A stretch of 64,000 nt of DNA from Eledone cirrhosa (GCA_964016885.1 OZ024755.1:14198001-14262000), one strand, 5' to 3'; shown: positions 37,591-44,483, counted from the first letter of the stretch. Made by a program: numbers and translations. The notes: generated by a model not told the origin, from the sequence alone.

Positions 37591-40038
37591 CGATCTCCCT
37601 ACTGATGACCGAATGTTGAAGTTGAGGTGTGCATATCTTCTCCCTCATATATATATATATATATATTTTTTTTTCTGATTACTCTTTTGCTGTGAATTGT
37701 TCATCTTTTGATACTTTATGTAAATAATTACAAAGTCTACCACCCAAATCTAGAAAAAACAAACAGAATAGTGAAGGATTGATAAAAATAAATCTAACAT
37801 TCAGGTTTGCTCAAGTTAGCAGTAAAAGTAATTGGGGATAAGTTAAGTAATATGAAATAAAATAAAAGTGGAAATCAATTGGACAACAAGTTTTATAGAA
37901 ATCACTATTAAAAAGTAAATGATTAAGATTTGAAAAGAAAAGGAGAAAAAAGACATGTATTCGTAACAACAGCGGTAAAGTAATATATCTCTTTGATCGA
38001 TTGTAATGACTTAGACAAATGTGACTTTATAACAGCAGTAATACAGATTAAATAATATATCAACTACGGCAATACAGATATGTGTTGTGTTCATAACATA
38101 GCGTTATCATTAAATTTCATTTAATGTGTAAGGAAACAGATGATAAAGAATCAATGAAATTGTTATCACCATAGCAACAGTACAAAACTGTCGTATATGT
38201 AAATGAAAAACAAGATACGTTATGTTTAATAATGTTAAAACATAATTTGTTGTAAATGAGAAAAAGGGAGTGATGTAGGAAAACATATTAAGGATAACAG
38301 GTTCAAGTTCTTCTCCAAATAAATGCAGCATAACCACAGTTTAGACCCCCCCCCCCCCCCTACGAATTGGTACCCGCACCACTTTCTTAATAATGTATCA
38401 TATTTACAGGCCTATTGGATGCCCCCCCCCCCGCGCAAAAACAAAACAACATAAAAATTTTCCCTGCGTGCAATACACCAATATCACCGACGGGAGGTTG
38501 AACATGGGGTGAGGACAGTCATGGTTTTAAGAAATTTAGTTTGTTACAATTAGTATTACTAATCAAAGGTGGTGGAAGCATTTCTGAATTGGAGGAGGCG
38601 ACGGGGCGTGGGGGCAAATTTGGTCAATTTAGTTGTGGTGATTAGTTTAGCTCTCTGCACTCTAAAATGGTCAGAAAATACAATTTAAGTCCAAGCAGGT
38701 CTTATTAGATTTACAGCTTTCAATAATTATAAAGTGATTATATTAAAATAACCTATAAAATCTGTCTCTGAATACACATACTAGCAATTGACAAATAGTG
38801 TGGAGAAAAAGTTACATGTCAAAAACATTTACTAGTAAAGGTTAACATATTACACTGTTATTATCAAACAGCAACCAAGATATAAAAAAACTACGATATG
38901 CGATAAACACATGTACATAAATAGATGTGTGTTTTAATAGTTTGGGGAAAAATATATAATTATTGGGGGAGGGGGTATGCTCCACCACTGGACCCACGAG
39001 GGTTGGGGGGGGGGGGCACTGGACCCCCAGTGCCACCGCCCCATACACATCATATATATATATTTATATACACAAACAGAACGAGGAGAGAGAGAGAGTG
39101 TTGTACTTCTATACATCTATTTATTATATACATAAAGGTATATATTCTGGTGTGCACATGTCAACCAATCGAACACGATCCACTGGATGTGTAACACAAG
39201 TAAAATGAACGACAAACCTAGAATGAATTGAGAGAGAAAAACTACCCATTAGAATAGAAATGCGTGTGTGCAGATATTTTCATTAAAATAATCAAGGGGA
39301 GGTAACCAGCATTGCATGTATGGGTGTGTTTATGGTGTGTGACAGTAAGTACGCGCGTGCGTGTTGGTGTTTTCTGGCAATCGCCCCAGGCAGACGAAAA
39401 CTATTCTCTGTTCACTAAATCCATTGAAAGAGTTTTGGTCTATCTCGATCTTCAGGATATCTGAGTGACAAGTTACTAACCATACAGCCACATTAAAATA
39501 TATATAGGGTTTTAATAAATATATATAAATTGATATTGATATTTTTTAAACACGTTTTAATATATTGTAATTCTTACAAAATAAAATTTATATATATTAT
39601 ATATCATATATACATATAATATATATATATATATAATATATATATATAATATATATGTATAATATATATATATAATATATATGTATAATATATATGTATA
39701 ATATATATATATAATATATATATATAATATATATGTATAAAATATATGTATAATATATATGTATAATATATATGTATAATATATATGTATAATATATATG
39801 TATAATATATATGTATAATATATATATATAATATATATGTATAATATATATATATAATATATATGTATAATATATATGTATAATATATATGTATAATATA
39901 TATATATATAATATATAACCAAAGTTTAATATGGTTCATTGATTACTCAATGAATATAGTTTTACAATAGATTAAAAGCACTCTACAAGAAAGTTTTCTG
40001 GAGTTATTAATGAAACATTCACATAATCAAAATATATG

Positions 40039-40100
40039 TTTTATTACATATATTTTGAAGGTACTGTGCTGTTTTTTCAGTACTTCCTCGTCAGATAAAT
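40039..40100 (-). ncRNA. Hammerhead motif with mutated core (GAAA to AAAA), probably inactive
   Basis: Inverted partner of 40219-40280. CTGACGA reads 40094 to 40088, but the catalytic G12 is A (position 40056, a CpG-type change). Confidence 0.75.
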
Positions 40101-40218
40101 ACATGAATTGATGTATGACATACCTCAACGGTCTTGAAAGTTCAATTCCAGTATTGGCAGTCAATACTGGAATTGAACTTTCAAGACCGTTGAGGTATGT
40201 CATACATCAATTCATGTA

Positions 40219-40280
40219 TTTTATCTGAGGAGGAAGTACTGAAAAAACAGCACAGTACCTTCGAAATATATGTAATAAAA
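40219..40280 (+). ncRNA. Minimal type I hammerhead ribozyme, intact core
   Basis: Stem I TTTTAT/ATAAAA. CTGAGGA core at 40225-40231. Stem II GGAAGTACTG/CAGTACCTTC closed by G-C, one mismatch. GAAA at 40263-40266. Two-bp stem III with ATAT loop. GUA cleavage triplet at 40272-40274. Confidence 0.85.
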
Positions 40281-40687
40281 CATATATTTTGATTATGTGA
40301 ATGTCTTCATTTATCATTATTCTGAATAATATATAATATATATGTATAATATATATGTATAATATATATGTATAATATATATATATATAATATATATATA
40401 TAATATATATATAATATATATATATAATATATGTATAAAATATATGTATAATATATATGTATAATATATATGTATAATATATATATAATATATGTATAAT
40501 ATATATGTATAATATATATGTATAATATATATGTATAATATATATATATAATATATATATATAATATATATATATAATATATATGTGTAATATATATATA
40601 TAAATATATATATAAATATATATATAAAAAATATATATATAATATACGATATTAACAAATGGAAACTATATTTATAAAACCATATTT

Positions 40688-40750
40688 ATTTCATTATACA
40701 TATTTCAAGGACACCAAGTTAAATTATGGTGTGCTTTCATCAGATAAAAT
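40688..40750 (-). ncRNA. Minimal type I hammerhead ribozyme, intact core, opposite polarity
   Basis: Reverse complement of 40836-40898 (TCATCAG at 40737-40743). Confidence 0.83.
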
Positions 40751-41761: not shown

Positions 41762-42828
41762 CATCCTGATCACCGTTTTGTGAACACGCTCACCAACAAG
41801 ACCTGGCAACTCTGTGAACACAACCAACAGTTCACCTTGAAATGGGATATACTTTCCAGCGCAAGTGCATATCGGAGTGGATTGAAGTAATGTAGGTTAT
41901 GTAACCTTGAACTCTTTTACATCTTAAAATCCAAAAATAAATTACTAAATGATAGAATCGAACGATCATTATAGTGCAACCACAAACTCAAAGCTAAATT
42001 CTTTCACTATAAAATAACTTAACATTCGAACCCGTAACTATAACATTACTTTCTAGCTAACCATTTTCTCTTCCCCCACACTACAAGACAATACTCTGCT
42101 TATCACTATAAATGGAAACTTAATGCAATTCGTAGATTACTACTATGAACCCAATGTTCACCCACCCCATAGCTTTCGTCTGTCCCCTCTCTATCTCTCC
42201 CTCTCTATCCATTCCACTCTCTCTCTCGCCCTAGGCCTACCTCCCTCTCTCTCCACATCTATGAACCTGCCCTCTGGGGCAATAAATAATTCCAACCTTG
42301 ACTATCAACACATCGCTTAAGGTGGTCGCTTTAAGAGTAACCAGTATAATAAAACCCCTACCACAACATTTTGATTAAGATATCTACAAACCACTCTCTC
42401 CCATTTCTCCAATCCCTACATATCTTTCTCTCTCTCTTCCTCTCCCCTTCTTTTCTCTCTTCCTTTTCTACTCTATCTTCCCCAATAACCTCACTTAAGG
42501 GTATTTACATTGTACATTTTAACCATTCTGCTCTGATGATACAGTGGTCACAGCATTTGATAATTGAGTTTTGCAAATAGTTATAAATTTGCACATAGCA
42601 TAACTAGGCTGTATAACCACCGTGGAAACATTTGTAAGCACACAGAATAAATTGCCTTTTTATGATGTCTACCTGTTATTATTCATTCTTTATCTACACT
42701 CCGGAATACAGAAGGATCAGGAACTAAGTTTCTTCAACAATTCTTCCATAACTCGTTGAGTAACCTCTCACCGTACGTCAACTCTATCCAGTGTAGTAAT
42801 TAACCATTACTGCATCTAGGATAATCCT
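41762..42828 (+). mobile_element. Penelope-like retroelement 3' fragment (degenerate GIY-YIG endonuclease C-terminus, 3' region and hammerhead)
   Basis: Frame 41783-42022 reads NTLTNKTWQLCEHNQQFTLKWDILSSASAYRSGLK*CRLCNLELFYILKSKNKLLNDRIERSL*CNHK. This fits the PLE endonuclease tail pattern (W.L...W.I...A..Y....C.LC..E...I......LN.R.E....C.H) with two stops. A hammerhead follows, and (TA)n flanks both sides. Confidence 0.75.
42525..42648 (+). ncRNA. Type I hammerhead motif with a long stem II, in the 3' region of a Penelope-like element
   Basis: Stem I ATTCTG/CAGAAT plus TGCT/AGCA. CTGATGA at 42533-42539. Stem II TACAGTGGT...ACCACCGTG with an extended insert. GAAAC-ATTT-GTA, predicted cut after 42636. 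The closing pair is U-G rather than the usual G-C. Confidence 0.72.
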
Positions 42829-42861
42829 ATATATATATATATATATATATATATATATAAT

Positions 42862-43260
42862 ATGATGAAATATATGGAGAATAGAAATGGGTGTGTAGTT
42901 CCTATTTAAGGTAACTTAAAATGCAGTGGGAATACGAAGAAAGCAAGAACAGGGGGAGGGGAGTTTTCCTCATCAGTTGTCTATTGGGGAACTCGGATAT
43001 TTCTACGCTTTAAAGACAATATACCTCGCCCCAGGGCGTCAATAACTGGATAAGTTATTGGGAAAACGGAAGGAGGGTTACTGTTTTCTCTTTGCTTTCC
43101 TTCCCTCCTTCTTTCGTTTTCCCAATAACTTATCCAGTTATTGACGCCCTGGGGCGAGGTATATTGTCTTTAAAGCATAGAAATATCCGAGACCCCCAGT
43201 AGACAACTGATGAGGAAAACTATCCCCCCCCCCCCTTCTTGCTTTCTTCGTATTCCCACT
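42862..43260. mobile_element. Foldback element C (arms ~145 bp)
   Basis: Inverted repeat 42925-43068 / ~43114-43260 with several mismatches, a one-sided tail and (TA)n flanks. Confidence 0.65.
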
Positions 43261-43399
43261 ATATATATAATATATATATAATGTATATAAAATATATATA
43301 TATATATCTAAGGCGGGTAAAATTCCCGAGATCCATGGACGAGTTCTCTCGAGCGGTCTCTGTCCCTCATTTGTCCTAAGCCACCTAGACTATTGCTCA

Positions 43400-43880
43400 A
43401 ACTAACCACAGTCCTTGAAGCAATCCTACAAAGCTCCACCAAGAGGATTGCGACGATGGAGGAGATAAGCTACTAGTAGAGGCTAAAATAACTGAACTTC
43501 TCCTCCATGGAATGAAGACACAGTGATATACATATGGAAAATCCTGGAGGGACTACGCACCAAACTTTGGCATTGGGAGCTAGACCACTGTGTGGTGCCA
43601 AATATGCCATCTTCAACATCTAGAATAAGGAGCAGATATTGCAATAGCCTGGGGTTCAAAGGCCCTCATCTTGTCAACAAGCTGCCAAGGAATTTGAGAG
43701 ATCTGCATGGATGTTTTCAAGAAACATCTCGACACCCTGCTATCCAGGATCCCGGATGAGCCCATAGCACGGTACGAAGGTAACTTATGGGCTGCAGCAA
43801 TGGCCAGCCAACACAGGTTGGAGATAGAATGTGTAGCAACTAACATGGCCTCAGCCGGATGGCTGGTACAGGTCAAAGAG
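43400..43880 (+). mobile_element. CR1/L2-group LINE 3' fragment
   Basis: IYIWKILEG, NSLGFKGPHLVNKLPRNLRDL and FKKHLDTLLSRIPDEP across frames. Confidence 0.72.
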
Positions 43881-44483
43881 TAAAAGAGTATATATAATAT
43901 ATATATATAACATATTATATATATATATGTATATATAATATATATATATATAATATATATATAATATATATATATATATATATATAATATATATATATAA
44001 TATATATATATAATATATATATATATATATAATATATAATATATATATATATATATATAATATATATACATATATAATATATATATATAATATATATATA
44101 TAATATATATATATATATATATATATAATATATATATATAATATATATATATAATATATATATATATATATAATATATATATATAATATATATATATATA
44201 TATATAATTTATATATATATATATATATATATATATATATATATATATATATATATATATATAATATATATATATATATATATAATATATATATATATAT
44301 ATATATATATATATATATATAATATAATATATATATATATATATATATATAATATAATATAAATATATATATATATATATATATATATATAATATATATA
44401 TATAATATATATATATATATAAAATATATATATATATATATAATATATATATATATAATATATATATATAATATAATATATAT

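Follow-up and report, generated by a model that had tools for sequence, protein, structure and literature searches.

The 64,000-nt stretch of the Eledone cirrhosa genome that we analysed (GCA_964016885.1 OZ024755.1:14198001-14262000; the window) contains a TA-rich region in which three foldback elements, termed A, B and C, and the remnant of a Penelope-like element (PLE) with part of a GIY-YIG endonuclease (EN), termed D, lie with hammerhead motifs between (TA)n tracts (Table 1). An earlier note made from the sequence had described this arrangement, and the coordinates and sequence identities confirm it, together with the design ascribed to the foldbacks: two inverted arms plus an extension, or tail, on one side only, which measures 61-91 nt. 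It is probable, in our assessment, that A, B and D are truncated PLEs of the Hydra clade inserted into (TA)n, and that a foldback arises from two starts of copying on one RNA, each located before a bulged stem-loop.

The five hammerhead motifs reported for the region come from three families, two from A, two from B and one from D. The motif at 40094(-) has AAAA in place of the GAAA core, which leaves four of the five intact, and these four fit the minimal type I hammerhead defined for PLEs (PMC4209133), with CUGANGA and GAAA cores, a helix III of 1-2 bp and a palindromic loop. In the B hammerhead, helix II is closed by A-U rather than G-C. Both cores are intact in 17/20 A, 25/28 B and 29/31 D motifs captured; family C has the first half of the core only and no GAAA core. 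An Rfam search of the window returned no hammerhead match at E ≤ 1. RNA reading through a foldback was predicted to pair the hammerhead core inside a long duplex (6/6 folds). The hammerheads appear to be carried along with the insertions, as candidate ribozymes that may cleave themselves as a dimer or with help from a protein.

The window lies on contig C15 of the 3.0-Gb genome, and named homologues from Argonauta suggest a cephalopod-like host. All four families are multicopy in this genome. On first look, 1851 (A), 1273 (B), 2639 (C) and 2563 (D) candidates matched, numbers that are not copy numbers; 40 candidates were scored per search, and the family samples used throughout are the best 30 matches. 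The foldback sequences occur as solo copies and also as terminal repeats of ORF-bearing elements (ORF, open reading frame), and the proposed PLE origin is borne out by such parents for A, B and D. The parent of A (L031) consists of an inverted pseudo-long terminal repeat (pLTR), a pLTR, a broken ORF for reverse transcriptase (RT) and EN, a 3′ untranslated region (UTR) and a pLTR that carries a hammerhead and a tail and abuts (TA)n. For B we found L291, L336 (intact ORF of 742 aa at 784-3012) and L338 (intact ORF of 745 aa), whose pLTRs are 89-94% like the window copy; the ORF was intact in two of the four B loci retrieved. Remnant D is 94% identical to the RT-EN copy in L189, the D parent, where RT and EN are present as frames.

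The Hydra clade is defined by a single ORF with RT and GIY-YIG EN, DKT, a CxCX5C linker, CxxC and CxH motifs and no CCHH (PMC8557442, section 11). One octopus element listed in the clade carries a hammerhead and targets (TA)n (PMC8557442, supplement), and Hydra-1_Obim is the clade's member from Octopus bimaculoides (PMC8557442). The single ORF that encodes RT plus a GIY-YIG EN at the C-terminus is intact in B, broken in A and seen as frames in D; the parents of all three have the CxCX5C linker and the CxxC and CxH motifs around the EN, and no CCHH. DKT replaces DKG in the A and B proteins, while the N-terminus of D was not securely recovered. A Pfam search gave a weak GIY-YIG match for D (E 0.073) and no RT match, and Pfam and PDB searches of the B ORF returned nothing meaningful. 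Because of DKT (A and B), the CxCX5C linker, CxxC and CxH without CCHH, the hammerhead near the 3′ end and the (TA)n targets, we place A, B and D in the Hydra clade: judged by sequence, with published Hydra proteins compared by eye, they are truncated copies of three Hydra-clade PLEs. A and B differ from the clade in their N-terminal motif, RWR rather than RWK (published Hydra-1_Crog also has RWR), and in a longer 3′ UTR (~1.3-1.9 kb), which brings the elements to >3 kb; the tails are 88-132 nt here and 30-40 nt in the Hydra clade (PMC8557442).

The insertion form is likewise a known one. EN+ PLEs are inserted as a pLTR with an adjoining inverted 5′-truncated copy and a 30-40-bp tail at one end, and an attached inverted 5′-truncated copy is noted for Penelope-13_HM (PMC8557442); the same unit was found here. 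The reserve explanation of the earlier note, truncated PLE insertions, holds for A, B and D, but its suggestion of an undescribed family does not, as two arms plus a one-sided extension are the published PLE form (PMC8557442, PMC3846280). They represent new families, but the clade and the form of insertion are both known.

Family C is built differently. Its unit is non-coding, ~572 nt long and tandem, running on into the next unit in 12/29 loci, and an inverted arm adjoins the copy in ~5/29. No ORF-bearing parent was noticed among 60 loci, in which no dedicated search for one was made, and five short words of C found no match in the published consensi. C is a separate non-coding tandem family on which the same foldback process seems to act. 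We rejected an assignment of these elements to the non-LTR retrozymes: retrozymes too are non-coding, carry a type I hammerhead and are related to PLE pLTRs, but they form head-to-tail arrays with a full hammerhead per unit (bioRxiv 10.64898/2026.07.22.740005), whereas A and B are head-to-head and the tandem C has half a core.

We then located the ends of the insertions, counting positions backward from the tail end. A TATATA is found no more than 14 nt from the tail end in 27/29 A, 27/30 B, 25/29 D and 16/29 C loci, compared with 6.5% of background positions. The (TA)n targeting proposed for the PLEs is supported. The idea of a landing pad is weaker: another of these families was present within 1.5 kb in 8/117 loci, and long interspersed nuclear elements (LINEs), together with a short interspersed nuclear element (SINE), use the same tracts. 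The window cluster is an extreme case of shared targeting. At A, the 13-nt unit of the left flank reappears at 40332-40646 with its orientation unchanged, and because the unit has one orientation on both flanks the minisatellite is the likely pre-existing target; addition of the TA by RT is disfavoured on the same ground. A miniature inverted-repeat transposable element or foldback DNA transposon was rejected, as one end is tailed and the interior is variable; target duplications are unreadable inside (TA)n.

Fold points were compared in loci recovered with tail-only search queries, to avoid selecting for the fold points themselves. An inverted arm adjoined 15/29 A loci (reference left out), its outer end falling at -84 to -89 in 14 of them, and 22/30 B loci, where it falls at -89 to -91 in 21. 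The junctions were distinct in 15/15 A foldbacks and in 14/15 B foldbacks captured by a short reference. Leaving aside two long B arms that this reference truncated, they lie between an overlap of 14 nt and an insert of 16 nt. Even among B loci chosen for likeness to the window junction, the 21 listed junctions (of 30 loci) all differ and none is that of the window. The earlier note had pictured a set of palindromic elements copied as units and had itself named differing breakpoints as the outcome that would speak against it. An independent palindromic, ribozyme-bearing family copied as whole foldbacks would account for the fixed outer ends, the many copies and the clustering of fold points near the 5′ edge, and two pairs of loci (L146 and L155; L001 and L014) do share a junction. 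The shared junctions, however, lie at a common 5′ edge with microhomology, 29 of the 30 junctions in the tail-selected sets are distinct, the hammerhead would be buried in the foldback RNA, and the arms are the pLTRs of coding elements; we consider such a family highly improbable. No sequence variant set the short copies apart from the long ones (in A, the lowest p among 9 columns was 0.03; B had none), and a separate self-propagating short subfamily was not detected.

The palindromes themselves are real. The arms have diverged by 4.6% in A and 1.6% in B (12 pairs), the ends are fixed per family and the form recurs at dozens of loci. Non-consensus bases are common to both arms at a frequency of 0.25 in A (0.04 across loci) and 0.44 in B (0.005 across loci): the arms came from one donor and then decayed independently. 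Raw reads of three restriction site-associated DNA (RAD) runs, which may stem from few loci, show the tail-less B end followed by TA. Palindromes within simple repeats are error-prone, and chimeric hairpin reads from assembly or library preparation could in principle imitate them; since the arms, which differ by 2-8%, decayed separately from shared donor bases and the reads show the B end, we regard the chance of an artefact as negligible. Two further loci show related forms: L349 and L350 together form a giant palindrome (C3:194050000-194063000) in which two ORF-bearing B copies, one of them with a tail and the other without, stand head-to-head, and at L019:1501-2100 a tailed A arm ending exactly at -259 meets the tailed arm of a B-like family head-to-head with no TA in between, which may be an insertion from two RNAs.

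What sets the fixed ends? In three of the four families (A, B and D) both ends are followed, 0-9 nt 3′, by a bulged stem-loop of the form (A/G)CTC-hairpin-TN-GAG(T/C). An ACTC-hairpin-TN-GAGT copy lies a few bases 3′ of the tail-less end, and a GCTC-hairpin-TN-GAGC copy, present only at the pLTR-ORF junction, lies 8 bases past the tailed end. This second copy follows the strict pattern at 18/30 A and 26/30 B ORF-linked loci; family D carries both stem-loops as variants. When both strands of the window were scanned, the motif occurred three times, all at the tails of A, B and D.

The motif was also present in metagenomic relatives. A protein-alignment scan of metagenomes yielded 78 loci of 32-39% identity (a scan with one single protein gave no matches), 61 of them with a near-complete N-terminus and 50 distinct with sufficient upstream DNA; L378 was dropped as mis-sliced, and the 220 nt before the ORF were tested in the remaining 49. 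The motif was found in 43 of these regions and twice in 26, as against 3 on the reverse strand, 0.8 in shuffles and 1 inside the ORF. Over all 78 loci it was present in 64 on the ORF strand and in 3 on the opposite strand. The 81 distinct inner sequences have a mean of 2.33 closing pairs compared with 0.59 ± 0.10 when shuffled, the first inner pair being C-G in 51 and T-A in 28, and when 28 copies selected by hand (24 of 82 metagenomic, longer stems favoured) were aligned, 4 of 7 pairs had changes on both sides. By manual count, 14/24 metagenomic 3′ repeat ends in flanking DNA sit 0-7 nt before the motif, or 16 with variants, and TA peaks 6 nt before it (41/90). In published Hydra consensi inspected by eye, the motif is present in four of six (coral, two sea cucumber, copepod) and as a variant in octopus; the sixth ends short. 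The main text of PMC8557442 mentions no stem-loop or hairpin, four short words searched in its supplement gave unrelated matches only, and Rfam returned nothing for the stem-loop in 8 loci. A literature search that took in few subscription papers, no figures, only part of the supplements and not PMC5785218 found no description of the duplicated stem-loop or of an initiator edge limiting both arms. The conserved stem-loop likely tells the enzyme where to start copying, with binding of the enzyme predicted.

We next asked how the tails are distributed. Among 20 ORF-linked loci with an inverted arm and both ends visible (four others without a visible 3′ pLTR were dropped), 18 have one tailed and one tail-less end (B 12/13, A 6/7), the tail being found with roughly equal frequency on the inverted arm and on the 3′ end; the other two carry a tail at each end, and no insertion lacks a tail altogether. 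The tail-less arm extends further 5′ in 7/15 A and 9/15 B foldbacks, the tailed arm in 5 A and 2 B. Because it often extends further, the tail-less arm was not the DNA template of the tail. A DNA strand that lacks the tail could not have templated one, so RNA was the likely template of both arms.

These arm lengths bear on two other explanations. The first is the snap-back or self-priming proposed for head-to-head PLE palindromes (PMC3846280), in which one cDNA or antisense RNA folds, is copied into the second arm and is then cut at a fixed site. Short self-complementary words at some fold points and the donor variants shared by the arms are consistent with it, but the tail-less arm, on which no tail could be templated, is the longer one in 16/30 foldbacks, tail-less solos exist (including L149) and both arms end at the same sense-strand 5′ edge. 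We therefore find snap-back improbable. The Adineta vaga Penelope described in the same report resembles our elements in its head-to-head inverted pLTR, optional tail on one arm, microhomology joints, solo pLTRs and TATA box with initiator (Inr)-like TCACT; the report proposes self-priming on an antisense template, whereas the arm lengths here favour two sense-templated cDNAs (PMC3846280). Alternatively, the stem-loop could be a signal for the EN on DNA or on an RNA-DNA hybrid, in which case the fixed ends would be cut sites from the resolution of an intermediate and not RT starts. The tail was earlier ascribed to EN-mediated resolution (PMC8557442), the D. virilis tail is needed for EN recognition (as cited in PMC11167929), and sequences give ends, not their origin. 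Yet a UA patch able to pair with a (TA)n primer sits before the stem-loop, the tail-less arm is often the longer, and in vitro the RT starts of Poseidon coincide with the tail ends (PMC11167929); an EN signal is unlikely, if less so than snap-back.

The arms also have a sharp 5′ edge. Of the 25 A arms reaching -250, 22 end at -259 to -252 and 3 extend beyond (manual count, L110 taken as -259); -259 is the A of TCACT, 32 nt past TATATAAA. The B edge at -276 is the A of CCACT: 16/30 B arms reaching -262 end between -276 and -262 (manual count), and the pooled set contains none whose end falls between -277 and -289. The A edge was drawn from assembled loci. Contig depth in run X1, which may be the assembled sample, climbs from ~6,000 to 180,000-325,000 across the B edge; the RAD-seq depth profile of B is shaped by restriction sites and was left out of the argument. 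Upstream A pLTRs linked to an ORF behave otherwise, as among 17 close copies none starts at -259, 1 starts at -252 and 10 extend further, and B is similar. Because ORF-linked copies run through the edge, it is likely the end of a template and not a pause site, and RT pausing was rejected as its cause. We infer that the edge may be an initiator-like RNA start. PLE transcripts begin in the upstream pLTR (PMC2377424, PMC6765202), and a TATA box and Inr-like TCACT have been noted in a rotifer pLTR (PMC3846280). A search of sequencing runs listed no RNA run, a result with no bearing on expression. In a B subfamily (L316, L317, L318, L321, L322 and L324) CACT is kept at the 5′ edge and the sequence upstream of it is different. 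One D copy (L175:1494) starts exactly at the A of TCACT (-335), and inverted D arms end at -329 and -331, a possible third initiator edge represented by few copies.

Such an edge could also result if most short insertions came from SINE-like short RNAs, transcribed from solo or 3′ pLTR copies and mobilised in trans, with the upstream (TA)n serving as a borrowed TATA box. The size of the A copies (26/29 are ≤259 nt and end at the initiator-like site, which ORF-linked pLTRs mostly pass), the non-coding tandem family C and the existence of non-autonomous PLE derivatives (PMC8557442; bioRxiv 10.64898/2026.07.22.740005) speak for this possibility. Solos, however, lack the distal stem-loop and would give only tail-less copies under the two-start model, and no variant splits short from long copies. 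We give SINE-like RNAs slightly less credence than snap-back.

In the two-start model that we favour, an RT-EN protein, probably dimeric, would attach to the two stem-loops where pLTR and ORF meet in the RNA, and the EN would nick both (TA)n strands. The nicked ends would pair with the short UA patch before a stem-loop and prime cDNA toward the 5′ end of the RNA, the distal start yielding the tailed arm and the proximal start the tail-less arm, before the two cDNA ends are joined head-to-head via microhomology or short fill-in. RNA begun at the initiator-like site would give a short foldback and a longer tandem RNA an ORF-bearing copy. Tail length would equal the spacing between the two stem-loops, and since the distal stem-loop is not copied, a foldback could not re-copy itself with a tail. 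Poseidon of Anolis (PAc) provides a precedent: both target strands are cut and extended, two internal RT starts match the tail, RNA 3′ of the starts is needed and a dimer is predicted (PMC11167929). Our elements, with their AT-rich target, would share with PAc the two internal starts bracketing the tail, the cutting and extension of both strands and the predicted dimer; compared with the main text on PAc, they differ in the duplicated, sequence-conserved bulged stem-loop, which lies upstream of the start codon and 3′ of either end (PMC11167929). We lean, only a little beyond even chances, towards a wider claim, that Hydra PLEs carry a clade-wide RNA signal in which tandem bulged stem-loops would each dock one RT site of a dimer beside a UA mini-template, making the inverted arm obligatory. 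The stem-loop pair can be likened to the template and boundary stem-loop of telomerase RNA, PLEs being the sister group of telomerase.

Several observations weigh against this model. The insertions L031 and L348 are two-tailed and L019 fuses the tailed arms of two families, family C has the same architecture without a Hydra stem-loop, and the site-2 hairpin of A (Table 1) lies outside the minimum-energy fold of L242. In the metagenomes, 10/24 flanked repeat ends fail the strict motif-distance test. The absence of ORF-linked A pLTRs starting at -259 (0/17) implies that the short RNAs cannot simply be mRNAs that were copied in full. In B and D a TATA box is either lacking or out of place, the TATA-like box of B being 21 nt before the edge compared with 32 nt in A. 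The family samples, finally, are the best 30 matches only, from up to ~2600 candidates.

A few other features were noted. Four tailed B arms (L138, L156, L158 and L133) break off at -95 to -101, a short way beyond the proximal start site, as though the RT from the distal site had stalled on reaching the second one. Copies of what we take to be a tRNA-like SINE with an inner 48-49-nt repeat lie at 44485-44880, directly after the last TA tract, and at many other places in the window. At 45000-45245 there is a tail-to-tail palindrome with arms 99% alike and a central TA tract, consisting of the final 90 nt of a further family with a hammerhead (668 first-look candidates); because one truncation point is common to both arms, it is likely an inverted duplication formed after insertion. 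A large pyrimidine-rich repeat array occupies 45300-59750, with units of ~1559 bp that are up to 100% alike and several segments inverted. An uninterrupted 248-aa frame at 28885-29631 (+) has the N and C domains of glutathione S-transferase and is an intronless gene or a retrocopy.

Table 1. Features of the TA-rich region, and a solo A copy, in the window
Feature	Position	Strand	Details
TA-rich 13-nt minisatellite	39585-39916		likely pre-existing target of the A insertion
Foldback A, whole	39917-40327		extension 39917-40005, 89 nt, left side; arms 96-97% alike
Family A tailed arm	39917-40160	-	5′-truncated Hydra-clade pLTR copy; 5′ end = family boundary (-259); 3′ tail 40005-39917
Bulged stem-loop (site 2), start of A tail	39976-40004	-	
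Hammerhead motif, A left arm	40045-40100	-	core 40094; second core changed to AAAA
Family A inverted arm without tail	40162-40327	+	intact minimal hammerhead, core 40225, cleavage triplet 40272-40274
Foldback B, whole	40647-41030		extension ~40940-41030, 88-91 nt, right side; arms 98% alike
Family B inverted arm without tail	40647-40831	-	5′ end = family boundary (-276); hammerhead core 40743
Family B tailed arm	40833-41030	+	hammerhead core 40843; tail ~40940-41030
Bulged stem-loop (site 2), start of B tail	40947-40969	+	
(TA)n-rich tract	41030-41562		
Family D, 5′-truncated Hydra-clade PLE	41761-42827	+	C-terminal half of GIY-YIG to ~42030, 3′ UTR, hammerhead core 42533, tail ~132 nt
Bulged stem-loop (site 2) of D	42698-42761	+	inner region long
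Foldback C, whole	42864-43260		tailed arm 43095-42864 (minus), tail-less arm 43103-43260 (plus); extension 42864-42924, 61 nt, left side; arms 92% alike
LINE, short 3′ end	43310-43372	-	presumably RTE-like, from its C-terminal peptide; identical 63 nt adjoin TA at locus L149
LINE, 3′ part	43373-43890	+	presumably CR1/L2 group, from RT motifs of its relative L300; ends at (TA)n
(TA)n tract	43891-44484		
Solo family A copy, tail-less	62909-63079	-	5′ end at the -259 boundary; TA on either side

The origin of the inverted repeats and tails of PLEs is named as an open question in PMC8557442, and in vitro work on one element has given only part of the answer (PMC11167929). The foldbacks of this locus are ordinary; the stem-loop, the one-tail rule and the sharp 5′ edge yield exact predictions, and an intact 742-aa ORF is available. 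In assemblies, where (TA)n flanks obscure the ends of Hydra elements, the motif also offers a simple means of locating and bounding them.

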